Assembly (NCBI RefSeq): GCF_054482595.1 | Contig: NZ_CM137008.1 | Reading direction: 5' to 3' (one strand) | DNA length: 64,000 nucleotides | Part shown: positions 3,131 to 48,672 of the stretch, piece by piece | Layout: each line of letters starts with the position of its first letter | Position numbering within the stretch: the first letter of the stretch is position 1 | Notes under the pieces: generated by a model | The model's input: the letters and a program-made list of their open reading frames with translations, nothing else | What the model was told of the DNA's origin: nothing | The model's database searches: none | Translations under genes and position numbers: made by a program

Positions 3131-6100
3131 ATGGGTAAAGGCAGCAGTAAGGGGCATACCCCGCGCGAAGCGAAGGACAACCTGAAGTCCACGCAGTTGC
3201 TGAGTGTGATTGATGCCATCAGCGAAGGTCCGGTTGAAGGTCCGGTGGATGGATTAAAAAGCGTGCTGCTGAACAGTACGCCGGTGCTGGACAGCGAGGG
3301 GAATACCAATATCTCCGGCGTCACGGTGGTGTTCCGGGCAGGCGAGCAGGAGCAGACACCGCCGGAGGGATTTGAATCCTCCGGCTCCGAGACGGTGCTG
3401 GGTACGGAAGTGAAATATGACACGCCGATCACCCGGACCATCACGTCTGCAAACATCGACCGTCTGCGTTTTACCTTCGGCGTGCAGGCACTGGTGGAAA
3501 CCACCTCAAAGGGGGACAGGAATCCGTCGGAAGTCCGCCTGCTGGTTCAGATCCAGCGTAATGGTGGCTGGGTGACGGAAAAAGACATCACCATTAAGGG
3601 CAAAACCACCTCGCAGTATCTGGCCTCGGTGGTGGTGGGTAACCTGCCGCCGCGCCCGTTTAATATCCGGATGCGCAGGATGACGCCGGACAGCACCACA
3701 GACCAGCTGCAGAACAAAACGCTCTGGTCGTCATACACCGAAATCATCGATGTGAAACAGTGCTACCCGAACACGGCACTGGTCGGCGTGCAGGTGGATT
3801 CGGAGCAGTTCGGCAGCCAGCAGGTGAGCCGTAATTATCATCTTCGCGGGCGCATTCTGCAGGTGCCGTCGAACTATAACCCGCAGACGCGGCAATACAG
3901 CGGTATCTGGGACGGAACGTTAAAACCGGCATACAGCAACAACATGGCCTGGTGTCTGTGGGATATGCTGACCCACCCGCGCTACGGCATGGGGAAACGT
4001 CTTGGTGCGGCGGATGTGGATAAATGGGCGCTGTATGTCATCGGCCAGTACTGCGACCAGTCAGTGCCGGACGGCTTTGGCGGCACGGAGCCGCGCATCA
4101 CCTGTAATGCGTACCTGACCACACAGCGCAAGGCGTGGGATGTGCTCAGTGATTTCTGCTCGGCGATGCGCTGTATGCCGGTATGGAACGGGCAGACGCT
4201 GACGTTCGTGCAGGACCGACCGTCGGATAAGGTGTGGACCTATAACCGCAGTAATGTGGTGATGCCGGATGATGGCGCGCCGTTCCGCTACAGCTTCAGC
4301 GCCCTGAAGGACCGCCATAATGCCGTTGAGGTGAACTGGATTGACCCGGACAACGGTTGGGAGACAGCGACAGAGCTTGTGGAGGACACACAGGCCATTG
4401 CCCGTTACGGTCGTAACGTCACGAAGATGGATGCCTTTGGCTGTACCAGCCGTGGGCAGGCGCACCGCGCCGGGCTGTGGCTGATTAAAACGGAACTGCT
4501 GGAGACGCAGACCGTGGATTTCAGCGTGGGTGCTGAAGGGCTTCGCCATGTACCGGGCGATGTCATTGAAATCTGCGATGATGACTATGCCGGTATCAGC
4601 ACCGGTGGTCGCGTGCTGGCGGTGAACAGCCAGACCCGGACGCTGACGCTCGACCGTGAAATCACGCTGCCATCCTCCGGTACCACGCTGATAAGCCTGG
4701 TTGACGGAAGTGGTAATCCGGTCAGCGTGGAGGTCCAGTCCGTCACCGACGGCGTGAAGGTGAAAGTGAGCCGGGTTCCTGACGGCGTTGCCGAATACAG
4801 CGTGTGGGGACTGAAGCTGCCGACGCTGCGCCAGCGCCTGTTCCGCTGTGTGAGTATCCGTGAGAATGACGACGGTACGTATGCCATCACCGCCGTGCAG
4901 CATGTACCGGCAAAAGAGGCCATCGTGGATAACGGGGCGCACTTTGACGGCGACCAGAGCGGAACGGTAAACGGTGTCACGCCGCCAGCAGTACAGCACC
5001 TGACCGCAGAAGTCACCACAGACAGCGGGGAATATCAGGTGCTGGCGCGCTGGGACACGCCGAAGGTGGTGAAGGGCGTGAGCTTCCTGCTTCGCCTGAC
5101 CGTGGCAGCGGATGACGGCAGTGAGCGGCTGGTCAGCACGGCCCGGACGACGGAAACCACATACCGCTTCACGCAGCTGGCGCTGGGGAATTACAGGCTG
5201 ACAGTCCGGGCGGTAAATGCGTGGGGACAGCAGGGCGATCCGGCATCGGTATCGTTCCGGATTGCCGCACCGGCAGCACCGTCGCGGATTGAGCTGACGC
5301 CGGGCTATTTTCAGATAACCGCCACGCCGCATCTTGCGGTTTATGATCCGACGGTACAGTTTGAGTTCTGGTTCTCGGAAAAACGGATTGCTGATATCAG
5401 GCAGGTTGAAACCAGCGCGCGTTATCTTGGTACGGCGCTGTACTGGATAGCCGCCAGTATCAATATCAAACCGGGCCATGATTATTATTTTTACGTTCGC
5501 AGTGTGAACACCGTTGGCAAATCGCCATTCGTGGAGGCTGTTGGTCAGCCGAGTGATGATGCGTCCGGCTATCTGGATTTTTTCAAAGGAGAGATAGGGA
5601 AAACCCATCTGGCTCAGGAGCTGTGGACGCAGATTGATAACGGTCAGCTTGCGCCTGACCTGACTGAAATCAGGACGTCCATAACGGATGTCAGCAATGA
5701 AATCACCCAGACCGTTAACAAGAAACTGGAAGACCAGAGTGCAGCGATCCAGCAGATACAGAAGGTTCAGGTTGATACAAATAATAACCTGAACAGCATG
5801 TGGGCAGTGAAGCTGCAGCAGATGCAGGACGGACGCCTTTATATTGCGGGTATCGGTGCCGGTATTGAGAACACCCCCGACGGCATGCAGAGTCAGGTGC
5901 TGCTGGCTGCAGACCGGGTGGCATTTATTAACCCGGCGAATGGTAACACCACTCCTGCACTGGTCACACAGGGCGGACAGACGTTTATTAATGAGGCGCT
6001 GATCAAGTTCCTTATTGCTCCCACGATTACCAGTGGTGGCAATCCTCCGGCATTCTCCCTGACACCTGACGGAAAGCTGACTGCTAAAAATGCGGATATC

Positions 6101-7334: not shown

Positions 7335-10259
7335 GTGAATATGGCAGTAAAGATTTCAGGTGTACTGAAAGACGGCACAGGAAAACCGGTTCAGAACTGC
7401 ACAATCCAGCTGAAAGCAAAACGTAACAGCACCACGGTGGTGGTGAACACGCTGGCCTCAGAAAATCCGGATGAAGCCGGGCGTTACAGCATGGACGTTG
7501 AGTACGGTCAGTACAGCGTTATTCTGTTGGTGGAAGGATTCCCGCCGTCACATGCCGGGACCATCACCGTGTATGAAGATTCCCAACCCGGTACGCTGAA
7601 TGATTTTCTCGGTGCCATGACGGAGGATGATGCCCGTCCGGAGGCTCTGCGCCGTTTTGAACTGATGGTGGAAGAGGTGACGCGTAACGCGTCCGCGGTG
7701 GCACAGAACACGGCAGCCGCGAAGAAGTCAGCCAGTGATGCCGGCACATCTGCCCGTGAGGCGGCAACCCATGCGACTGATGCTGCAGGCTCAGCGCGTG
7801 CAGCCAGCACGTCAGCCGGACAGGCCGCGACTTCGGCTCAGGAGGCGTCTTCCAGCGCAGGAACGGCATCAACAAAGGCCACTGAAGCATCAAAAAGTGC
7901 TGCCGCTGCAGAGTCCTCAAAAAGCGCGGCGGCCACCAGTGCCGGTGCGGCGAAAACGTCAGAAACGAATGCTGCAGCGTCACAAAAATCAGCAGCCACT
8001 TCTGCATCCACTGCGACGACGAAAGCGTCAGAAGCCGCCACTTCAGCCAGAGATGCGGCGGCCTCCAAAGAGGCGGCAAAATCATCAGAAACGAACGCCT
8101 CCACAAGCGCCAGCAGTGCAGCCTCCTCGGCAACGGCGGCAGGAAATTCCGTGAAGGCGGCAAAAACGTCCGAGACGAATGCCAGGTCTTCTGAAACGGC
8201 AGCGGAACAGAGCGCCTCAGCTGCGGCAGACTCTGAGACAGCAGCTGCATCATCGGCCCGTGAGGCGTCCATTAAGGCAGAGGAGGCAGCAGTCAGTGCC
8301 ACCGCCGCCGGAAAATCGGCAGAAAGCGCCGCATCATCCGCTTCAACAGCCACAACGAAGGCTGGCGAAGCCACTGAACAGGCCAGCGCAGCAGCGAGGT
8401 CTGCTTCCGCAGCGAAGACATCCGAAACGAACGCGAAAGCGTCGGAAACCAGCGCAGAATCCTCAAAAACGGCTGCCGCATCGTCCGCCAGTTCGGCGGC
8501 GTCATCGGCATCATCTGCGTCTGCTTCAAAAGATGAGGCGACCAGACAGGCGTCAGCAGCGAGGGGCAGCGCCACGACGGCATCCACGAAGGCGACAGAG
8601 GCTGCTGGCAGTGCGGCAGCGGCAGCACAGAGCAAAAGTACGGCGGAATCCGCGGCAACGCGCGCCGAGACAGCAGCAAAACGGGCAGAGGATATTGCAT
8701 CCGCCGTGGCGCTTGAGGATGCGAGCACGACGAAAAAGGGGATAGTACAGCTCAGCAGTGCGACCAACAGCACTTCCGAGTCACAGGCGGCAACGCCAAA
8801 AGCCGTTAAGGCCGCGTATGACCTGGCTAACGGGAAATACACCGCACAGGATGCAACGACAGCACAGAAAGGGATAGTTCAGCTCAGCAGTGCGACTAAC
8901 AGCACTTCCGAGTCACAGGCGGCAACGCCAAAAGCCGTTAAGGCCGCGTATGACCTGGCTAACGGGAAATACACCGCACAGGACGCTACGACAGCACAAA
9001 AAGGAATTGTCCAGCTCAGTAGTGCAACCAACAGCACATCTGAAACGCTTGCTGCGACACCGAAAGCAGTGAAAGCAGCTAATGACAATGCGAATGGTCG
9101 GGTACCTTCTGCCCGTAAGGTGAATGGTAAGGCGCTTTCAGCGGATATAACACTGACGCCGAAAGATATTGGTACGCTTAACTCAACAACAATGTCATTC
9201 AGCGGTGGTGCTGGTTGGTTCAAATTAGCAACGGTAACCATGCCACAGGCGAGTTCTGTTGTTTCAATTACGTTGATTGGTGGCGCTGGATTTAACGTGG
9301 GGTCACCTCAACAGGCAGGTATATCTGAACTTGTTTTACGTGCAGGTAATGGTAATCCGAAGGGGATTACTGGTGCTTTATGGCAGCGCACATCGACAGG
9401 GTTTACAAATTTTGCCTGGGTCAATACATCTGGTGATACTTACGATATTTACGTTGCAATCGGAAATTATGCGACTGGTGTAAATATTCAATGGGATTAT
9501 ACCAGTAATGCCAGCGTGACGATTCATACGTCACCAGCATATTCTGCTAATAAGCCGGAAGGGTTAACGGACGGTACAGTTTATTCACTCTATACGCCAT
9601 CAGAGCAGTTTTATCCGCCTGGCGCACCAATCCCGTGGCCATCAGATACCGTTCCGTCTGGCTATGCCCTGATGCAGGGGCAGACTTTTGACAAATCTGC
9701 CTACCCGAAACTTGCAGCCGCTTATCCGTCAGGCGTGATCCCTGATATGCGTGGCTGGACGATTAAGGGCAAGCCCGCCAGTGGTCGTGCCGTATTATCT
9801 CAGGAACAGGACGGCATTAAATCGCATACCCACAGTGCCAGTGCATCCAGTACGGATTTGGGGACGAAAACCACATCGTCGTTTGATTACGGCACTAAAT
9901 CCACGAATAACACCGGAGCGCACACCCATAGTGTCAGTGGTACGGCTGCTTCTGCAGGGGCACATACACACACGGTTGCCTGTTACCCATCTGGCAATAC
10001 CGAGCAGGGCGATAAAGCCCTCAAAGGTGCGTCTCGTGCAGGCTCGAGTACTGGCACATCGTCAGCCGGAGCGCATACCCACCCGGTGTCAGGTACTGCT
10101 GCAAGTGCAGGTGCACACGCGCATACTGTCGGTATTGGTGCTCATACGCACTCCGTTGCGATTGGCTCACACGGACACACCATCACCGTTAACGCTGCTG
10201 GTAACGCGGAAAACACCGTCAAAAACATCGCATTTAACTATATTGTGAGGCTTGCATAA
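7335..10259 (+). CDS. stf: Side tail fibre protein (Stf-like) with Ala/Ser/Thr-rich shaft, 44-aa tandem repeats and His-rich C-terminal repeats
   Basis: 974-aa ORF; N-terminus resembles lambda Stf; long low-complexity A/S/T region; three 44-aa repeats; C-terminal GAHTHxV repeats. Confidence 0.85.
8739..9134 (+). repeat. Three tandem copies of a 132-bp (44-codon) unit inside stf; copies 1 and 2 nearly identical, copy 3 diverged
   Basis: Units begin at 8741, 8873 and 9005 (gatagtacagctcagcagtg... / gatagttcagctcagcagtg... / gaattgtccagctcagtagtg...); each encodes [25 protein letters not shown]. Confidence 0.85.
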
Positions 10260-10843
10260 TGGCATTCAGAATGAGTGAACAACCACGGACCATAACAATT
10301 TATAATCTGCTGGCCGGAACTAATGAATTTATTGGTGAAGGTGACGCATACATTCCGCCTCATACAGGTCTGCCAGCAAACAGTACCGATATTGCACCGC
10401 CAGATATTCCGGCTGGCTTCGTGGCTGTTTTCAACAGTGATGAGGCATCGTGGCATCTTGTTGAAGACCATCGGGGTAAAACAGTTTATGACGTGGCATC
10501 AGGGAACGCGTTATTTATTTCTGAACTCGGCTCATTACCGGAAAATGTTACCTGGTTATCCCCGGCAGGGGAGTTTCAGAAGTGGAACGGCACAGCCTGG
10601 GTGAAGGATACGGAAGCAGAAAAACTGTTCCGGATCCGGGAGGCGGAAGAAACAAAAAACAGCCTGATGCAGGTAGCCAGTGAGCATATAGCGCCGCTTC
10701 AGGATGCTGTAGATCTGGAGATCGCAACGGAGGAAGAAAACTCGTTGCTGGAAGCCTGGAAAAAGTATCGGGTGTTGCTGAACCGTGTTGACACATCAAC
10801 TGCACCTGATATTGAGTGGCCGGAAGAACCAGACACAATGTAA
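10259..10843 (+). CDS. tfa: Tail fibre assembly protein (Tfa)
   Basis: 194-aa ORF resembling lambda Tfa; its ATG overlaps the stf stop (TAATG). Confidence 0.9.
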
Positions 10844-11189
10844 GCGAAAAAGAAAAACCGCAGACACGACGTATGCAGGACGTGCTGCGGTTGGCTGGTG
10901 AACTTTCGATAGTGCGAGTATTGAATGATTTCCAGCCGTTACCGATTTTATATAACTGCAGTGGAATTATTCAACACACAGGCAAAACGGAATAAGCTGA
11001 GAAAAAAGCGTGCTTTCCCAATCTGGGGCAAATCACGTCTGAATGACACCTGAAAACAGGTGGTGGACTCAAGACGGCTTGGAATATTCTTCTTTAATGT
11101 TATGTAATTCATTGATTTTTCGTGTACGATTTTAAGACATTTATTCCAAGAAAAATTTTTAACTCTTTGATTTTTCGACTCTGTATCAT

Positions 11190-11251
11190 CGGTCTCGAAA
11201 ACCGGAGTAGGGGCAACTCTACCGGGGGTTCAAATCCCCCTCTCTCCGCCA
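11190..11251 (+). other. serU: 3' fragment (62 nt) of a tRNA-Ser gene: anticodon arm, variable arm, T-arm and 3' acceptor strand ending CCA; read as the prophage attR core
   Basis: cggtctcgaaaaccggagtaggggcaactctaccgggggttcaaatccccctctctccgcca matches the 3' two-thirds of E. coli tRNA-Ser(CGA) as I recall it; the upstream sequence does not match the 5' acceptor/D-arm. Confidence 0.8.
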
Positions 11252-38180: not shown

Positions 38181-41505
<3,325 letters not shown>

Positions 41506-41719
41506 CGCGCACCTCGTGGCTGATTATGGACGGCGTTATTGGCAAAGTGGAACAAGACTCACTCCCGGGTCAGCAAACTCGAAAAATTGACGCTCCCATT
41601 ATTTGTGCTTTCTTTTTTTTCTATCCGCCAATAAACCCGTTTTTTTGTTGCTATTTAGCGCCTTTGTCTTATTGACTTACTGGTAGGCTTTGCTACCAGA
41701 AATTATCCGGGAGATGAAA

Positions 41720-42034
41720 ATGTCAGCGATACAGGGGATTGAAGGGGTTATCAGCCAGTTACAGGCTACGGCGATGAGTGCGCGTGCGCAGGAATCACTA
41801 CCGCAACCGACCATTAGTTTTGCCGGGCAGCTGCATGCCGCGCTCGATCGCATAAGCGATACACAAACCGCCGCCCGCACGCAGGCAGAAAAATTCACCC
41901 TCGGCGAACCCGGCGTGGCGTTAAACGATGTGATGACCGATATGCAAAAAGCCTCAGTTTCAATGCAAATGGGGATTCAGGTGCGTAATAAGCTGGTGGC
42001 GGCGTATCAGGAAGTGATGAGCATGCAGGTGTAA
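41720..42034 (+). CDS. fliE: Flagellar hook-basal body protein FliE
   Basis: ATG 41720 with ggaga RBS gives 104 aa ([15 protein letters not shown]...); divergent from fliF. Confidence 0.95.
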
Positions 42035-42367
42035 GTTGTGTAACCTGTTGTTGATTACATCCGATCTCACCGCGTGGGGCATGGATGGGGCAAACACACT
42101 CAATTTCTGGTTTAAAATGGAAACCTGATTCTGAAAGTTTTCTGCCATCCACGATCTGTAAACGCGATAACATGTTTTGTCTTCGCTTTGCTCATAGGAA
42201 GAGTGAACTCTTTCGTTAGCCCTGGGTTCCTTCTGATCATTATTGTTCCTGCCTTTATCTCTTGCCACGCCAGAGCCCCCTGGATACACATACACCAGGA
42301 TGAAAACGGTGAGTTGTGTTCAAACTGTAGTACAATTCTCTCCAGTATGAACAGGAAAGAATATGCT

Positions 42368-42700
42368 ATGAACCCTTATATTTATCTTGGTGGCGCAATA
42401 CTTGCAGAGGTCATTGGTACAACCTTAATGAAGTTTTCAGAGGGGTTTACACGGTTATGGCCCTCTGTTGGCACAATTATTTGTTATTGTGCATCATTCT
42501 GGTTATTAGCTCAGACGCTGGCTTATATACCTACAGGGATTGCTTATGCTATCTGGTCAGGAGTCGGTATCGTTCTGATTGGTTTGCTTTCCTGGGGATT
42601 TTTTGGCCAACGACTGGACCTGCCAGCCATCATAGGCATGATGTTAATTTGTGCCGGTGTGTTAGTCATTAACTTGTTGTCACGAAGTGCACCGCATTAA
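42368..42700 (+). CDS. emrE: Small multidrug resistance (SMR) efflux transporter EmrE
   Basis: 110-aa four-TM ORF (MNPYIYLGGAILAEVIGTTLMKFSEGF...) essentially matching EmrE as I recall it; aggaaaga RBS. Confidence 0.9.
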   Translation: MNPYIYLGGAILAEVIGTTLMKFSEGFTRLWPSVGTIICYCASFWLLAQTLAYIPTGIAYAIWSGVGIVLIGLLSWGFFGQRLDLPAIIGMMLICAGVLVINLLSRSAPH

Positions 42701-42868
42701 AAAATAATTATCCTTGAGACAACAGGAATGTAATTTGTGCATATTATGGCTAATGCTGAGGGCAACTTTATAATTATGATTGCATTTGCACGATCATTGC
42801 GCCTTTATGCATAATGAGAGCAAGGCACATCAAATAAAATAACGATAGGTCACAACAAAGAGGTTTTT

Positions 42869-43420
42869 ATGAAAAAGCTTATCGTTTCAAGTGTATTGGC
42901 ATTCATAACATTTTCTGCGCAGGCCGCAGCATTTCAGGTCACTAGTAATGAAATAAAAACAGGAGAGCAACTTACAACGTCTCATGTATTTTCTGGATTT
43001 GGGTGTGAGGGGGGTAATACATCGCCCTCATTAACCTGGTCTGGTGCTCCAGAAGGCACCAAAAGCTTTGCCGTAACTGTGTATGATCCAGATGCGCCTA
43101 CAGGCAGTGGATGGTGGCACTGGACTGTTGCTAATATTCCAGCAACGGTAACATATTTGCCCGCTGATGCAGGAAGACGTGATGGTACAAAACTTCCGAC
43201 TGGTGCTGTCCAAGGCCGAAATGATTTTGGCTATGCAGGATTTGGTGGAGCATGTCCTCCCAAAGGAGATAAACCCCATCATTACCAGTTTAAAGTATGG
43301 GCTCTAAAAACTGATAAGATTCCTGTAGATTCTAATTCCAGCGGAGCGTTAGTTGGTTATATGCTTAATGCCAATAAAATTGCAACCGCTGAGATAACAC
43401 CAGTTTATGAGGTAAAGTAG
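42869..43420 (+). CDS. ybcL: Periplasmic PEBP/RKIP-family protein YbcL
   Basis: 183-aa ORF with signal peptide; resembles DLP12 YbcL. Confidence 0.85.
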   Translation: MKKLIVSSVLAFITFSAQAAAFQVTSNEIKTGEQLTTSHVFSGFGCEGGNTSPSLTWSGAPEGTKSFAVTVYDPDAPTGSGWWHWTVANIPATVTYLPADAGRRDGTKLPTGAVQGRNDFGYAGFGGACPPKGDKPHHYQFKVWALKTDKIPVDSNSSGALVGYMLNANKIATAEITPVYEVK

Positions 43421-43429
43421 GGTAAGAGT

Positions 43430-44227
43430 ATGCTGGCAAAAGATAGGACTAACCTAAAGATTGAAGAAATACGGATGCATAAACATCATGAGATTCACAG
43501 GGTTAAGCCTCTTATGCCAGCTTTATGTCGTATCCGTCAGGGAAAAAAAGTTATCAATTGGGAAACGCATAGTCTAACTGTTGATAATAATCAGATAATT
43601 TTATTTCCCTGTGGATATGAATTTTATATTGCGAATTACCCAGAAGCAGGTCTTTATCTTGCAGAAATGCTTTATTATCCCATTGATCTAATTGAAAGGT
43701 TCCAAAAGCTTTATGCGATAACTGATCAAATTCGTAACACGACAGGTTTCTGCTTACCTCAGAATCCCGAGTTAATATATTGTTGGGAGCAACTAAAAAC
43801 ATCTATTTCCCGAGGCTTCTCAACGCAAATTCAGGAACACTTAGCAATGGGCGTTCTACTTTCATTAGGAGCACATCATGTTAATTATTTGCTTTTATCA
43901 GATAGTAAACAATCATTAATAAGTCGTTGTTATAACCTAATGCTATCCGAACCTGGAACAAAATGGACAGCAAACAAAGTAGCGAGATATCTCTACATTT
44001 CTGTTTCCACATTGCATCGCCGTCTGGCAAGCGAGGGAGTAAGTTTTCAAAGTATATTGGACGACGTGAGGTTAAATAATGCGTTGTCTGCTATACAAAC
44101 GACAGTAAAACCCATCAGCGAGATTGCCAGGGAAAATGGTTACAAGTGTCCTTCTCGTTTTACTGAAAGGTTCCATAATCGTTTTAAGATAACACCAAGA
44201 GAGCTAAGAAAAGCGTCCAGAGAGTAA
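43430..44227 (+). CDS. ybcM: AraC-family transcriptional regulator (YbcM-like)
   Basis: 265-aa ORF with C-terminal AraC-type HTH ([12 protein letters not shown]...[12 protein letters not shown]). Confidence 0.75.
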
Positions 44228-45159
44228 AAGTATTTTATGAAGGAGCAACAGCATCGATTTTTATTTTGGAAAATAAATACGGCATACTCAACCTATTGGA
44301 GCCTGAACAATCCGGTGACTTCTGCGCTAATCGGGGACGTTTATAAGCACATATAATTGATACTATCTTCCTCCATCACAATTTCAGAAATGCACGTGTG
44401 ATTTTTTTGCATCCGGCGTTTGGACTATGTGGAGTTCAAGAGTGGGAAAGTTACAAGAGGTTGAGGGGATAATTAAAGGGATGCTTATGACATTAGATAT
44501 CCGGATAGGTACGGATATCGTTGTTATTAAATCTAGTTTATACGTTAAGATGCAGCTACAGCAGAAATTGCCATTGTTAATTTTTTCATCGTGAGCCCTT
44601 TTATTTGTACTATTATTTAAAAATGATGTCACTGCACTACAAATACTCATCTAATCAATGAGATTATTTCAAGATTTAAGTTTTAGTTTCTCATTTAAAT
44701 TGTGAAGTAGATCCCTCCTTTTATCTGAACTGTTTCTATTGCACACAATGCATGACTATTTTGTGAACGAATATAAATTTGGTAATCAAATTATATTAAA
44801 GGTTGTTATTTATGATTGACTCATAATTTATTTTTTTTAATTTAAATAGCCTAAAAATAACCATGGAGATTATTTGCATGATATTTGTTTAGATTTGTTA
44901 ATGTAATTGAGGTGATTTTATTTAATACGCAATATAGCGCCGCTTGATATTAGTTCTATTTTTTTGCGTAAGATAGATGAGACAAACTGAGACGCATAAT
45001 GGTTTGCAAGGCTCTAATACTTTGATGTTGAGGATGTGATGGGGCATGTACGGGGCATAGTACAATGATGTCCATGCAGGTGTAGATAATCTCCAGGCTT
45101 ATCCAGTGCGCCGTAAAACCCCGTCCTTCAGGGCGGGGATATAAGGCTCGGTTTTTCAC

Positions 45160-45591
45160 CTAACCAGGTGTTTGCTGTTGTTCAATGTATTGGCGGATGA
45201 CGGATATTGGCGCACCTCCGCAGCTACTGGCAAAATAGCCGGGACTCCACAAAACGCCTTTGTAGTAATACCTGACTGCAATATCTGGTCGATCTCGTCG
45301 CAGTAATCTACCCGATACGCCTTTGAGGCTGTTTACCAGACTGGATATCGCCAGTTTGGGAGGATAGTTAATTAACAAATGGACGTGATCTGGTTCGCCA
45401 TCCATTTCAACCAGTTCAGCTTCAAAATCAGCACATACATTTGAAAAGTAAGTGCGTAGTTTTTCTGTCGCGTCATGGTCAAAAATCTGACGTCGGTATT
45501 TGGTGACAAAGACCAGGTGAACATGCATCAGGAAAACACAGTGCCTTCCACGCCGGATATCGGTTTCTTTTTTCACAGACCAAAGTATCAT
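45160..45591 (-). CDS. tnpA: IS200-type Y1 (HUH) transposase TnpA
   Basis: HVHLL HUH motif and C-terminal tyrosine region (YYYKGVLWSPGYFASSCGGAPISVIRQYIEQQ); the true start may be an internal Met. Confidence 0.85.
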   Translation of the reverse strand: MILWSVKKETDIRRGRHCVFLMHVHLVFVTKYRRQIFDHDATEKLRTYFSNVCADFEAELVEMDGEPDHVHLLINYPPKLAISSLVNSLKGVSGRLLRRDRPDIAVRYYYKGVLWSPGYFASSCGGAPISVIRQYIEQQQTPG

Positions 45592-45598
45592 TTGGCCT

Positions 45599-46417
45599 GT
45601 GAAACGACTACAAGCATTTAAATTCCAGTTAAGACCCGGTGGTCAACAGGAGCGTGAAATGAGGCGCTTCGCAGGCGCATGTCGTTTCGTTTTCAATCGT
45701 GCTCTGGCGCTTCAGAATGAGAATCATGAGGCCGGTAATAAATACATCCCTTACGGGAAAATGGCTTCCTGGTTGGTTGAGTGGAAAAACGCCACTGAAA
45801 CGCAATGGCTTAAAGATTCGCCCTCACAGCCATTGCAACAGTCACTGAAAGACCTTGAGCGGGCTTACAAAAACTTCTTCCAGAAGCGGGCTGCTTTTCC
45901 CCGATTCAAAACGCGGGGACAGAATGATGCATTCCGCTACCCGCAGGGCGTTAAGCTCGATCAGGAAAACAGCCGTATTTTTCTGCCGAAACTTGGCTGG
46001 ATGCGCTACCGGAATAACCGTCAGGTCACGGGTGTTGTGAAAAATGTCACTGTCAGCCAGCCGGGGCGCAATGTCCGGGCAAAATCAGGTTTAAACCGTT
46101 CGATACTGGATCAGGGCTGGTATGAAATGCGCCGTCAGCTTGAGTACAAGCAGCTCTGGCGTGGCGGTCAGGTGCTTGCTGTTCCGCCAGCGTACACAAG
46201 CCAGCGTTGCGCGTGCTGTGGTCATACAGCGAAAGAAAATCGCCTGTCACAAAGTAAATTCAGATGCCAGGTATGTGGATATACAGCGAACGCCGATGTA
46301 AATGGCGCTCGTAACATTTTAGCGGCGGGGCACGCCGTTCTTGCCTGTGGAGAGATGGTGCAGTCAGGCCGCTCGTTGAAGCAGGAACCCACCGAAATGA
46401 TTCAGGCGACAGCCTGA
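45599..46417 (+). CDS. tnpB: TnpB-like protein with apparent internal deletion of the RuvC-I/RuvC-II core; predicted nuclease-inactive
   Basis: 272 aa versus the usual ~400; N-terminus typical of TnpB (QAFKFQLRP...[15 protein letters not shown]); C-terminus keeps the CxxC..CxxC zinc finger and an ADVNGARNI RuvC-III-like motif; no GxDxG/E segment in between. Confidence 0.7.
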
Positions 46418-46456
46418 ACGTAGCAGGGATCCACGTCCTTCAGGGCGTGGAGGATG

Positions 46457-47128
46457 TCAACAAACAGGTTGAATTAACTCCGCGCCCTGGTTTTTGACAT
46501 TACCTACCGCGCGCGATACCGGGTGCCAGGTGAACTGGTTTGCTGGCACACAGCCACTGGCAGCGATTTCTGAGGCTTCTTTACCACCAATGTCTTGCCG
46601 CATCCATTCCCGCGCAGCTTCTGGCGACAGTACCAGCGGGCGGCGGTCATGAATATCTACCAGACCCTGGTCTGCTGCTGCAGTGACAATTAAAAATCCT
46701 TCGGCTTCGTCACCACGCTCAAACGGTGTGCTACCTATCGCGGCCATAAAAACAGGTTGTCCATCAGCGCGATAGATAAAATAAGGCTGTTTTTTGTCGC
46801 CTTCTTTTTTCCACTCAAACCAGCCATCGGCAAAACAGATTGCCCGACCATGTTGCCAGAGCGGTTTAAACATACGACTGGTTGCCGCAGTTTCTACGCG
46901 GGCGTTAATCAGCGGCGATTTATCCCACCATCCGGGAGCATATCCCCAGAAAACCGGATCCAGATGAAGGTGTTCATCACGTTCACTGAGCAGAAGAACT
47001 TTGGTTCCCGGCGCGACGTTGTATCTGCCAATGGGTTCGGGATCGTAGGGAATATCGCGTTCAATATCTTCCGCGAGAAGCGCAAGGTAATCTTCACGCG
47101 TTTGGGATTGGGCAAAGCGTCCACACAT
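46457..47128 (-). CDS. yedK: SOS-response-associated peptidase (SRAP/HMCES family; abasic-site DNA-protein crosslinking)
   Basis: 223-aa ORF beginning MCGRFAQ with the catalytic Cys at position 2. Confidence 0.9.
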   Translation of the reverse strand: MCGRFAQSQTREDYLALLAEDIERDIPYDPEPIGRYNVAPGTKVLLLSERDEHLHLDPVFWGYAPGWWDKSPLINARVETAATSRMFKPLWQHGRAICFADGWFEWKKEGDKKQPYFIYRADGQPVFMAAIGSTPFERGDEAEGFLIVTAAADQGLVDIHDRRPLVLSPEAAREWMRQDIGGKEASEIAASGCVPANQFTWHPVSRAVGNVKNQGAELIQPVC

Positions 47129-47236
47129 AGCAACCTCCTGAGATCATACTGAAAAGAATAGGAGAGGGGGCGGGTAAAATCTATGTGATACAGAGGTAAC
47201 GATGTTCCCGCTGTGGGACACAGCGGGAAGGAGGGA

Positions 47237-47470
47237 TTATTTCTGAATTAAATAACGAATGGTCGGCCCGTCTTGCTGAATATCCAGCACCGTATAGCCG
47301 TGATTACGCGCATCCAGTGGAATATTATTGATCGACTGCGGACAGTCGCTCACCACTTCCAGGATCTCACCTTTTTTTAATTGCGGCATCGCCTCAAGGG
47401 TTGCGACTGCCGGATAAGGGCAGGGTTCACCCACCATATCAAGGCGGTAATCAGGAACGATATTTTTCAT
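47237..47470 (-). CDS. yedF: TusA-like sulfurtransferase YedF
   Basis: 77-aa ORF with CPYP motif. Confidence 0.9.
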   Translation of the reverse strand: MKNIVPDYRLDMVGEPCPYPAVATLEAMPQLKKGEILEVVSDCPQSINNIPLDARNHGYTVLDIQQDGPTIRYLIQK

Positions 47471-48672
47471 GCGATCTCCTTAGCTGTCTGCGGTGCCGCA
47501 CGGCGGAAGAAGCGTTTTTCCCTGCCGATAATCAACATCAGCGCAGCAAACAGCAGCAAATATGTCACCAGCAGGCCACCCATCGGGCCAAAGGTTTTCA
47601 GGAGGTTGATTTTGTCCCAGTCGGTGGCCAGCGCCGGAGCGAAATCATCCCAGTAATACGCCAGAATCGTTGAGCCGATCACGTTGCCCAGACCGACCCA
47701 CCAGTAGTGCACCTGGCCTTCTACCGCGCGGTACATCCAGCCGGTTTCGCAACCGCCTGCCAGCACGATGCCAAAACCAAACAGTAAACCACCGATTACC
47801 GCGTTCGGCCCCGCCCACATGATTTTGGGTTCAACGCCTAACTGGACGTAACTGAAGATCCCGATGGCACTCACCGCCATACCGATAATGATTGCTTTCG
47901 CCATGTGGGTACGTCCGGTGATCCACATATCGCGGAACGCCGAAGTAAAGCAGATTTGTGCACGTTCAATCAGTAAACCAAAGCCGACGCCAAACAGCAT
48001 TGCCAGCCCCAGTTTTGGTTGGTTCATCGCCGTCAGCAGCGCCCAGCCCAGCATGCCGAAAAAGACCAGCATCCCGAGACGAAAACGACGCCGCGCCTGA
48101 TCCGGTTTTTGCGTCAACGGTGAGGCAGCAGAAACTTTCTGCATTTTCACGGGAATACGGAAGATGGGCAGCAGGGTAAAGCGCGCGCCAAACCATGAAC
48201 CAATGGCAGTGGCGATGGCAAAGAACCAGGCGTGCAGCGAGAACTGTGGAATGCCGGTAAAGAACGCCGCCAGATTACAGCCCATTGCCAGACGTGCGCC
48301 AAAACCAGCGATAATACCGCCAATGATGGCCCGCATAATGCGGATACGGCTGCGCGGCATGCGCAGTTTGACATTGTTGGCCCACAGCGCTGCGGCAAAA
48401 CAGCCGCCAAACATACCGAGGATCATCATGCCGTCGATGCGGGTTAATGGCGATCCTTCCAGATGGATAATTTTAAAATAACCCCACTCTTCAGCATGGA
48501 CGCCGAACAGCTGCAGGAGCTGACCGCCCCAACGGGTAAATTCACCCGTGACAGCCCAAAAGGTGCCAGTGATGCCAAAGTAGTAAGTGGAGAGAATACC
48601 CGCCGCGATGACCGCAGGGATGGGTGCCCAGAATTTAATCAACCAGGCGTGTTTGAATTGCTGCCATGACAT
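47467..48672 (-). CDS. yedE: Selenium/sulfur-compound transporter YedE
   Basis: 401-aa polytopic membrane ORF; overlaps yedF by 4 nt. Confidence 0.9.
   Translation of the reverse strand: MSWQQFKHAWLIKFWAPIPAVIAAGILSTYYFGITGTFWAVTGEFTRWGGQLLQLFGVHAEEWGYFKIIHLEGSPLTRIDGMMILGMFGGCFAAALWANNVKLRMPRSRIRIMRAIIGGIIAGFGARLAMGCNLAAFFTGIPQFSLHAWFFAIATAIGSWFGARFTLLPIFRIPVKMQKVSAASPLTQKPDQARRRFRLGMLVFFGMLGWALLTAMNQPKLGLAMLFGVGFGLLIERAQICFTSAFRDMWITGRTHMAKAIIIGMAVSAIGIFSYVQLGVEPKIMWAGPNAVIGGLLFGFGIVLAGGCETGWMYRAVEGQVHYWWVGLGNVIGSTILAYYWDDFAPALATDWDKINLLKTFGPMGGLLVTYLLLFAALMLIIGREKRFFRRAAPQTAKEIA

Follow-up and report, generated by a model that had tools for sequence, protein, structure and literature searches.

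The emrE-ybcL-ybcM Segment beside fliE of Escherichia coli Is Very Probably a Deleted DLP12-like Prophage Remnant

The segment at positions 42015-45085 of the window (the whole 64,000-nucleotide stretch of DNA analysed here) is very probably, with a probability of about 0.9, what extensive deletion has left of a DLP12-like lambdoid prophage integrated into the 3' end of fliE. We regard it as a second DLP12-like prophage remnant, located at fliE, because of its att repeats, its integrase fragments, and the phage order of its genes. The feature is real, has already been annotated in thousands of genomes, and is known and ordinary in E. coli; it represents no new mechanism or gene family.

Results

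The gene calls for the interval between fliE and yedK were taken from the list of open reading frames and from the annotation that RefSeq gives for E. coli YZLc23-1, a record with 100% identity, and the two sources were found to be concordant. The genes and the right-hand spacer are as follows.

41720-42034, plus strand: fliE (reading frame list and RefSeq annotation of the identical record); its final 20 bp are the attL core
42368-42700, plus strand: emrE coding sequence, intact (reading frame list and RefSeq)
42869-43420, plus strand: ybcL, intact (reading frame list and RefSeq)
43430-44227, plus strand: ybcM, intact (reading frame list and RefSeq)
45086-45103: chromosomal spacer from the att core to the yedK stop codon, common to K-12
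46457-47128, minus strand: yedK, the right chromosomal flank (reading frame list and profile evidence)

A first-pass annotation of this DNA had described emrE, ybcL, and ybcM as contiguous between fliE and an IS element, with 168 bp between emrE and ybcL, and both descriptions were borne out by these sources (the spacer is 42701-42868). The GC content of the island is 0.39, compared with 0.55 and 0.53 for the flanks. Rfam and tRNA scans of positions 41000-47500 gave no result above threshold, and a promoter scan returned fewer promoter-like sites than were found in shuffled sequence.

The same annotation had proposed a search of the flanks for att-like or short direct repeats. The search was run, and the segment was found to end on both sides in a direct repeat of about 20 bp that copies the 3' end of fliE (42015-42034 and 45065-45085). 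The features of the two ends are listed below.

42015-42034, plus strand: attL-type core, TGATGAGCATGCAGGTGTAA, direct repeat; codes for the C-terminal residues (V)MSMQV of FliE and its stop codon
42051-42171, minus strand: C-terminal fragment of a tyrosine integrase, intG-like, 92% identical to the IdasGreatGrand int gene (L011 4164-4045); reads towards fliE
42075-42092: arm-type repeat, left copy, inside the C-terminal integrase fragment
42166-42275, minus strand: second, internal integrase fragment, 74% identical over 116 bp to the IdasGreatGrand int gene (L011 3700-3585; E = 6e-16)
44929-45064: AT-rich remnant of a phage P arm, with an arm-type repeat at 45040-45057
45065-45085, plus strand: attR-type core, a displaced copy of the fliE 3' end; encodes MMSMQV and a stop codon

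An exact 12-mer of the core occurs twice in the 64 kb, against an expectation of 0.01. The right core is identical at 21 of 21 positions to the attP core of phage IdasGreatGrand (PP925829), and at 20 of 20 positions to the end of fliE in strain EC67; the flanking repeats of the island thus match the attP core of a phage. In IdasGreatGrand this core lies just downstream of int, and the match between the phage int-attP region and the window stops exactly at the core. The arm-type repeats that stand on both sides of the core in the phage attP are also present at both ends of the island. The two integrase fragments, from between which 344 bp of int are absent, lie beside the left end and are oriented towards the att site. 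The integrase stub is common to K-12 as far as position 42171 at about 96-97% identity, and the translation of K-12 intG matched phage integrases by tblastn with E = 2e-19. A PHROGs search with the 92-residue reading frame that covers the stub in the window gave no match; the K-12 and L006 reading frames of the stub matched weakly.

Between the two ends, the island is made up of blocks of lambdoid phage sequence. Their counterparts are in DLP12 of K-12 and in the plaque-forming phage PhiR70_1 (PV340577).

42292-42709, plus strand: end of ren through emrE, lambdoid nin region; 92.6% identical to PhiR70_1 and 92.1% to DLP12
42710-42726: 17-bp joint that replaces the 2.1 kb from ylcJ to ybcK of DLP12 and PhiR70_1
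42727-44444, plus strand: ybcL promoter region, ybcL, ybcM, and the spacer to the ybcN start codon; 89.6% identical to PhiR70_1 and 89.8% to DLP12
44444-44544, plus strand: 3' end of the antiterminator Q gene, quuD-like; 82.5% identical to PhiR70_1 9491-9593
44549-44928, minus strand: first 41 nucleotides (44549-44589) of an NmpC/OmpD-type porin gene and its upstream region; 80.9% identical to PhiR70_1 10820-11198

These four blocks, including the Q and porin stubs, are collinear with both PhiR70_1 and DLP12. The order in the island is the end of ren, emrE, a gap in place of ybcK, ybcL, ybcM, a deletion that has removed ybcN through most of Q, the 3' end of Q, and the porin stub with its promoter region. 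A clean deletion has taken the other 1222 bp of the porin segment from the window; the gene is intact in the islands of EC67 (L002 4461-5682) and UTI89. Repeats were looked for at the breakpoints of the ybcK and porin deletions, and none were found. Since ybcK is absent, the island was not assigned to the elements mobilised by this large serine recombinase. The first-pass description of the segment as lacking a recombinase holds only for ybcK, of which the 17-bp joint is what remains, because a tyrosine-integrase remnant is present at 42051-42275 (minus strand). Positions 42035-45085 contain no phage replication, immunity, lysis, or structural gene. The island therefore qualifies only as a remnant and not as a virion-producing prophage, and for the same reason its assignment to a prophage rests on the stubs, the gene order, and the att sites.

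The IS element named in the first-pass annotation lies outside the att-bounded island and consists of the following parts.

45104-46460: IS200/IS605-family element, inserted in the yedK stop codon
45119-45139 and 46431-46451: subterminal hairpins, a repeat close to both ends of the element
45160-45591, minus strand: tnpA; TnpA (Y1 transposase) NF033573, 148 bits (cut-off 55)
45599-46417, plus strand: tnpB, internally deleted; TnpB profile matches in two stretches

The presence of TnpA, TnpB, and the subterminal hairpins places the element in the IS200/IS605 family. Its insertion has lengthened yedK by one Cys codon, and it is missing at the same site in EC67 and UTI89. The element is a later insertion that is unrelated to the prophage remnant.

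The three cargo genes encode proteins that can be assigned by homology to studied proteins. EmrE has 110 residues with Glu at position 14 (AILAEVIG), is 97.3% identical to the K-12 protein, and matches NCBIfam NF042984 with 235.4 bits (cut-off 226); the predicted product is a proton-coupled SMR efflux pump. YbcL matches NF007330 with 401 bits (cut-off 277), is 96% identical to K-12 YbcL and 98.9% identical to the UTI89-type protein, and has a putative N-terminal signal peptide that was assigned by eye; it is predicted to be a periplasmic PEBP/RKIP-like protein. Residue 99 of the YbcL precursor is Ala in the window, Val in K-12, and Thr in UTI89. Lau et al. 2012 reportedly found that this residue (V78T) decides neutrophil suppression; Ala99 could, though with low probability, be a third functional allele there. 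The YbcL of uropathogenic E. coli (UPEC) suppresses the transmigration of neutrophils (PMC4810123), and the UTI89 copy of the fliE-linked locus encodes the YbcL that was studied as a suppressor of neutrophil migration. YbcM is 92.1% identical to its K-12 homologue across all 265 residues. AraC-family models match residues ~153-264, every one of them below its equivalog cut-off, as is expected because YbcM belongs to a different subfamily; the features of an AraC/XylS-type regulator, with a C-terminal helix-turn-helix domain, are present, and the protein is predicted to be one. The K-12 protein was found by ChIP-exo to be bound upstream of ybcLM (PMC8464067), which for K-12 gives part of an answer to the first-pass question of control of ybcL by this regulator.

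Relative to DLP12, the alleles of the island are about 90-92% identical, with dS values of 0.21-0.37 and dN/dS values of 0.04-0.10. Relative to a B2 strain, the island is 97.1-97.2% identical and the flanks are 98.3% and 96.5% identical. Because the identity to DLP12 is only about 90%, and because the divergence of the island resembles that of the flanks, there is no sign of recent mobility. These values indicate that the island was not recently transferred, and that its three cargo genes are under purifying selection and have been inherited vertically with the flanking chromosome.

The distribution of the arrangement was determined in 5426 complete E. coli genomes. The fliE-emrE junction was found in 2616 of them (48%), and an integrase stub adjoins fliE in about 5361. 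The first-pass annotation had named a common arrangement with no sign of recent mobility as the outcome that would count against its proposal; this is largely what the genomes contain. A fliE-linked copy is present in 2659 genomes, and 598 carry the phage-type (DLP12-type) copy only. The fliE-linked arrangement is thus about four times as common, and K-12 is a minority case. The reduced island of the K-12 type, with 376 bp between fliE and yedK, was found in 983 genomes. Six genomes have a full-length integrase beside fliE. The one that was inspected, UTAK-1, has a prophage at the site whose lambdoid early, nin, and lysis regions are complete; after int come xis, N, cI, cro, cII, replication genes, the nin region, Q, lysis genes, and terminase.

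A truly empty site was not found in the E. coli genomes with a synthetic fliE/yedK junction as the query. Among the GTDB species representatives, a degenerate pattern that places the fliE stop codon 5-35 bp from the yedK stop codon gave only a chance match, in Paraflavitalea; the pre-integration state is therefore one that we infer. The closest Salmonella homologue of YedK (81%) sits in prophage-type cargo (DinI-GtgE-SRAP-NEL) and is not syntenic, so that it offered no date for the integration.

Discussion

The first-pass annotation had stated that emrE, ybcK, ybcL, and ybcM lie inside DLP12 in K-12, and that the fliE-yedK interval of that strain holds integrase and pseudogene remnants plus yedL. 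This is correct; the remnants are intG' and yedN'. DLP12 and the island are both defective remnants that keep nin-region morons, and their shared cargo agrees in order and orientation (emrE, ybcL, ybcM, Q, and, on the opposite strand, an NmpC-type porin gene), with nucleotide identities of 81-92%. However, DLP12 is integrated at the tRNA-Arg gene argU with a different integrase and is about 21 kb long, whereas the remnant at the fliE 3' end is about 3 kb long, is far more decayed, and is without ybcK, ybcN-ylcG, the lysis genes, and the IS3 and IS5 elements of DLP12. The "cryptic prophage PR-G" of K-12 (the intG pseudogene, yedN', and yedL) occupies the same site, with the same attL and the same integrase C-terminal stub. 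Past the stub come the yedN pseudogene and yedL, where the window has emrE-ybcL-ybcM. The attR core is missing from the K-12 type, yet the divergence begins exactly at the outer edge of the core.

Two functional lambdoid phages account for the parts of the remnant, which, reduced to stubs and cargo, is itself unable to form a phage. PhiR70_1 provides the intact template for the interior (cI-cro-cII-O-P-ren-emrE-ybcK-ybcL-ybcM-ybcN..Q-OmpD-S-R-Rz), and IdasGreatGrand provides the matching integrase and an attP core with the sequence of the fliE 3' end. We found no single sequenced phage with both an IdasGreatGrand-like integrase and a DLP12-like nin region, and a search for a phage without ybcK also found none. 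An IMG/VR contig (L013) with the arrangement cI..ren-emrE-ybcL-ybcM and no ybcK was rejected as such a phage, since within emrE it passes from phage-type to fliE-type alleles. This arrangement is probably a chimera or a recombinant, and an assembly chimera is probable because it occurs in 0 of the 5426 complete genomes.

The anatomy of the island suggests the following history. A temperate phage whose tyrosine integrase was of the IdasGreatGrand type would have integrated by recombination between its attP core and the end of fliE, and FliE would have stayed intact because the core copies the last fliE codons. Subsequent deletions would have removed most of int through ren, ybcN through Q, the porin gene in this strain, and the region from the lysis genes to the tail genes. 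What would be left between attL and attR are three intact nin-region cargo ("moron") genes and a set of gene stubs. The comparison is compatible both with the loss of ybcK at the fliE site and with its gain in the DLP12 lineage.

Because this integrase type and this nin-region type were not seen together in one sequenced phage, the remnant could combine two successive prophages, with the integrase stub and att sites derived from one and emrE through the porin from a tandem DLP12-like prophage, the two having been fused by deletions. We consider this doubtful, though worth keeping in mind. The K-12-type and emrE-type islands have in common only attL and some 120-150 bp of int, and IdasGreatGrand is absent among the 30 listed of the 40 phage records that match the island. 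In addition, records in which fliE adjoins a full-length int gave two query matches each, which may reflect a new prophage beside an older remnant. Lambdoid phages are mosaics, however, and both modules could reside in one phage; moreover, the order and orientation fit a single lambda-type map, with int at attL followed by nin, Q, porin, and attR. A composite origin would alter the history of the feature and not its nature.

The first-pass annotation correctly noted DLP12-type cargo in a position other than that of K-12, within a variable fliE-yedK interval. It had explained this either by a different ancestral position or by transfer between a prophage and a chromosomal hotspot. Neither origin agrees with the att repeats, the int fragments, and the phage gene order, which point to a second prophage that decayed in place. 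It is very unlikely that the fliE side is the original home of the module, from which DLP12, PhiR70_1, and others acquired it by aberrant excision. The fliE-linked copy is the commonest in E. coli (2659 against 598 genomes), but specialised transduction takes DNA that adjoins an att end, and the phage module is interior, between ren and ybcN. Within the att repeats, the module also has an int stub to its left and stubs of Q and the porin gene to its right, and its GC content of 0.39 is far below that of the chromosome. Least credible of all is a recent move of the module from DLP12 at argU to a hotspot at fliE by way of an IS or homologous recombination. An IS200/IS605 element does abut the island, and contig L013 does fuse phage-type and fliE-type alleles within emrE. 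Against this, the identity to DLP12 of about 90-92% and the dS of 0.21-0.37 are those of an old separation, the att-bounded unit does not include the IS, which is missing from the EC67 and UTI89 islands, and L013, absent from all complete genomes, is probably an assembly artefact. IS200/IS605 elements are not known to mobilise flanking genes.

The link to the flagellar regulon that the first-pass annotation had implied finds support only in adjacency, and the genes are adjacent because the att site lies in the fliE 3' end. The scan whose promoter side gave fewer sites than shuffled sequence predicted no terminator from the end of fliE to emrE, and therefore fliE transcription could read into emrE. 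A domesticated remnant, kept as a fixed accessory module with its expression tied to its position and with Class-2 transcription of fliE extending into emrE and perhaps ybcLM, nevertheless seems improbable. If this were true, read-through from fliE would couple efflux and the host-interaction factor YbcL to motility.

On the preferred reading, that of a decayed DLP12-like prophage, roughly half of E. coli strains carry emrE-ybcL-ybcM in a prophage scar of approximately 3 kb at fliE; among them are UTI89, Nissle-type, ST131, and O104:H4 strains. The perspective taken from K-12 is corrected in that the K-12 arrangement of these genes is the unusual case. The UPEC YbcL that was studied as a suppressor of neutrophil migration would be encoded by this scar. 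A family of lambdoid phages appears to use the 3' end of fliE as a live attachment site, and recognition of this end as an att site is useful for the annotation of prophages and would explain the variability of the fliE-yedK interval.

Structure of the fliE-yedK Island

The chromosome of E. coli YZLc23-1 matches the window at 100% over positions 41600-47200. The ORF listing and the RefSeq annotation are concordant for the genes given below.

Features of the locus (gene calls from the ORF listing and RefSeq)
fliF, fliG, and fliH, minus strand
41720-42034, plus strand, fliE
42368-42700, plus strand, emrE
42869-43420, plus strand, ybcL
43430-44227, plus strand, ybcM
between ybcM and tnpA, AT-rich gap of 0.9 kb
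45160-45591, minus strand, IS200/IS605 tnpA
45599-46417, plus strand, short tnpB
46457-47128, minus strand, yedK, with yedF, yedE, and yedD beyond

EmrE and YbcL score 235 and 401 bits against curated NCBIfam cut-offs of 226 and 277, respectively, and YbcM is 92% identical to YbcM of K-12. Both gene sets confirm the first-pass annotation, which had placed emrE, ybcL, and ybcM between fliE and an IS element with a 168-bp emrE-ybcL spacer and without ybcK. Its account of K-12 was also right: DLP12 carries emrE-ylcJ-ybcK-ybcL-ybcM, and intG', yedN', and yedL occupy the fliE-yedK interval of K-12.

The search for att-like or direct repeats that had been proposed for the flanks found a copy of the fliE 3'-end at both ends of the island. 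The last 19-20 bp of fliE (42015-42034) are repeated at 45065-45085, and the exact 12-mer of this repeat occurs only at these two sites in 64 kb (0.01 expected). The right copy encodes MMSMQV followed by a stop codon and is therefore the displaced 3'-end of fliE; from this copy to the yedK stop codon is 16 bp. The translation of K-12 intG (fliE-emrE interval) matches phage integrases, the best being the C-terminus of the integrase from Escherichia phage IdasGreatGrand (PP925829; 78% over 54 aa, E = 2e-19). At the nucleotide level, 42051-42170 matches the 3'-end of this int gene at 92%, and the match of 42166-42275 is to an interior stretch (74%). Directly downstream of the int stop codon, IdasGreatGrand carries ...CTACACCTGCATGGACATCA, the reverse complement of the right core in the window (21/21) and of the fliE 3'-end in the B2 strain EC67 (20/20), and the homology between phage and window breaks off precisely at this core. 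Another short repeat, TGGGGCATGnAnGGGGCA, flanks the IdasGreatGrand attP core on both sides; in the window it is found within the int stub (42075-42092) and directly left of the right core (45040-45057); its placement fits putative arm-type sites. Because of the end repeats, the int matches, and the arm-type repeats, the structure of the segment is attL - int' - cargo and stubs - P arm - attR.

The outer boundary of the attR core (window 45085/45086; ~4505 in the K-12 locus, L005) is the exact point at which the K-12-type and emrE-type islands can no longer be aligned; the sequences there are ..GGTGTAG/ATAATCTCC.. versus ..TTGATCA/ATAATCTCC.. (slash, edge). The K-12-type island is without the attR core.

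The fliE site is used by real phages. A full-length tyrosine integrase lies directly beside fliE in six complete genomes, and three of these six integrases are 98.4% identical to that of IdasGreatGrand. In UTAK-1, the integrase at fliE is followed by xis, early genes, N, cI, cro, cII, replication genes, the nin region, Q, tRNAs, lysis genes, and terminase. The tRNAs of this complete prophage, between Q and the lysis genes, are tRNA-Thr and tRNA-Asn (L012 4742-4897).

Prophage Remnants within the Island

The interior was compared with DLP12, the plaque-forming lambdoid phage PhiR70_1 (PV340577), EC67, and K-12. Four blocks were found, arranged in phage order.

Interior blocks of the island
42292-42709, ren end and emrE, 92-93% identity
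42727-44444, ybcL and ybcM as far as the ybcN start codon, ~90% identity
44444-44544, antiterminator Q gene, final ~100 nt, 82% identity
44549-44928, minus strand, first 41 nt and upstream region of an NmpC/OmpD-type porin gene, 81% identity

The gene order of PhiR70_1 is cI-cro-cII-O-P-ren-emrE-ybcK-ybcL-ybcM-ybcN-ninE-ybcO-rusA-ylcG-Q-OmpD(-)-S-R-Rz. Since the blocks keep this order, the segment in the window is a collapsed version of the PhiR70_1 map. EC67 and UTI89 have an intact porin gene at the equivalent position, where a clean deletion of 1222 bp is seen in the window. The GC content of the island is 0.39, versus 0.55 and 0.53 for the flanks.

The absence of ybcK could reflect either a loss at this locus or descent from a phage that lacked the gene. 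The DLP12-type module includes ybcK wherever the region is covered (35 IMG/VR loci and three INPHARED phages), with the lone apparent exception of one viral contig, IMGVR_UViG_3300029728_000157 (L013). This contig was rejected as a ybcK-less phage because its allele type changes inside emrE: at 4147-4565, counted in columns of the emrE segment, the alleles are phage-type to approximately 182 and fliE-type from approximately 239, a join with a counterpart in 0 of 5426 complete E. coli genomes. Chimeric assembly of metagenome reads across the two emrE paralogues is the probable cause, or else recombination. No repeats were found at the deletion breakpoints. Because the remnant shows other deletions, it is more parsimonious to suppose that ylcJ-ybcK was lost here.

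The IS200/IS605 element (1357 bp, 45104-46460) lies outside the att-bounded unit, and its insertion is a later, independent event. EC67 and UTI89 have the same island without it. The insertion is in the yedK stop codon and yields a YedK of 223 aa (versus 222) with a terminal Cys. The tnpB gene is internally deleted (272 aa, with the TnpB model matched in two stretches), and full-length copies elsewhere in E. coli are ~390 bp longer. A weak RAGATH-18 match at the tnpB 3'-end (46344-46387; 29.5 bits, below the gathering score of 44.9) may mark the guide-RNA region of the element.

The closest Salmonella homologue of YedK (81% identical; S. enterica GCA_013801285.1, L051 6493-11064) is found among prophage-type cargo: DinI, GtgE, SRAP, and then an LRR-NEL effector. 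This arrangement recalls yedK-yedL-yedN of K-12 if yedN is an IpaH/NEL-type pseudogene. It may be that yedK itself was once phage cargo.

Cargo Genes

By homology, EmrE is predicted to be a proton-coupled SMR efflux pump and YbcL a periplasmic PEBP-family protein. Residue 72 of EmrE (42581-42583) is Gly here and Ser in K-12, EC67, and PhiR70_1. In K-12, YbcM has been located upstream of ybcLM by ChIP-exo, and deletion of ybcM lowers survival in H2O2 (PMC8464067); the window keeps 142 bp of the homologous sequence upstream of ybcL. YbcL from UPEC suppresses neutrophil transepithelial migration, whereas commensal and laboratory homologues, which differ from it by one residue, are non-suppressive (review PMC4810123). 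The ybcL of UTI89 is the fliE-linked copy. Residue 99 of the YbcL precursor (43163-43165) is Ala here, Val in the K-12 DLP12 protein, and Thr in the UTI89/EC67 protein. With a signal peptide of 21 aa, this would be mature residue 78, the residue that, as reported by Lau et al. 2012, distinguishes suppressive from non-suppressive YbcL.

Distribution and Origin

The contiguous fliE-emrE junction is present in 2616 of 5426 complete E. coli genomes (48%). The emrE-type island is carried by, among others, UTI89, a Nissle derivative, JJ1886, O104:H4, and O111. The junction is also found in a RefSeq "E. coli DH5alpha" of 4.83 Mb (NZ_CP026085.1, 1933355-1933995), unlike K-12 and NEB5-alpha, and that strain label looks doubtful. 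The ybcL-ybcM pair is present in 3257 genomes of the same complete set. In 2659 of them the best copy is of the fliE type, with at least 95% identity to the window, and in 598 it reaches only 90-95% and is of DLP12 or phage type. No more than ~110 additional places were counted, and therefore few genomes have two copies. An int stub lies beside fliE in ~5361 genomes, and 983 have a K-12-type island reduced to 376 bp.

Relative to DLP12, the dS values for emrE, ybcL, and ybcM are 0.34, 0.21, and 0.37, with dN/dS of 0.036, 0.080, and 0.098, respectively; the divergence is therefore deep and under purifying selection, and no recent copy is involved. The island is 97.1-97.2% identical between the window and a B2 strain, which falls between the 98.3% and 96.5% of the flanks and fits co-inheritance with the chromosome.

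Among the papers searched, none describes the att structure or the island itself. The genes are known, being annotated by name at the fliE locus in thousands of RefSeq genomes, and the K-12 record flags a cryptic prophage at the fliE-yedK site. The reconstruction uses comparative genomics of a standard, familiar sort. The first-pass annotation found the location beside fliE surprising because K-12 was taken as the reference; the island is a real feature and a routine cryptic-prophage scar.
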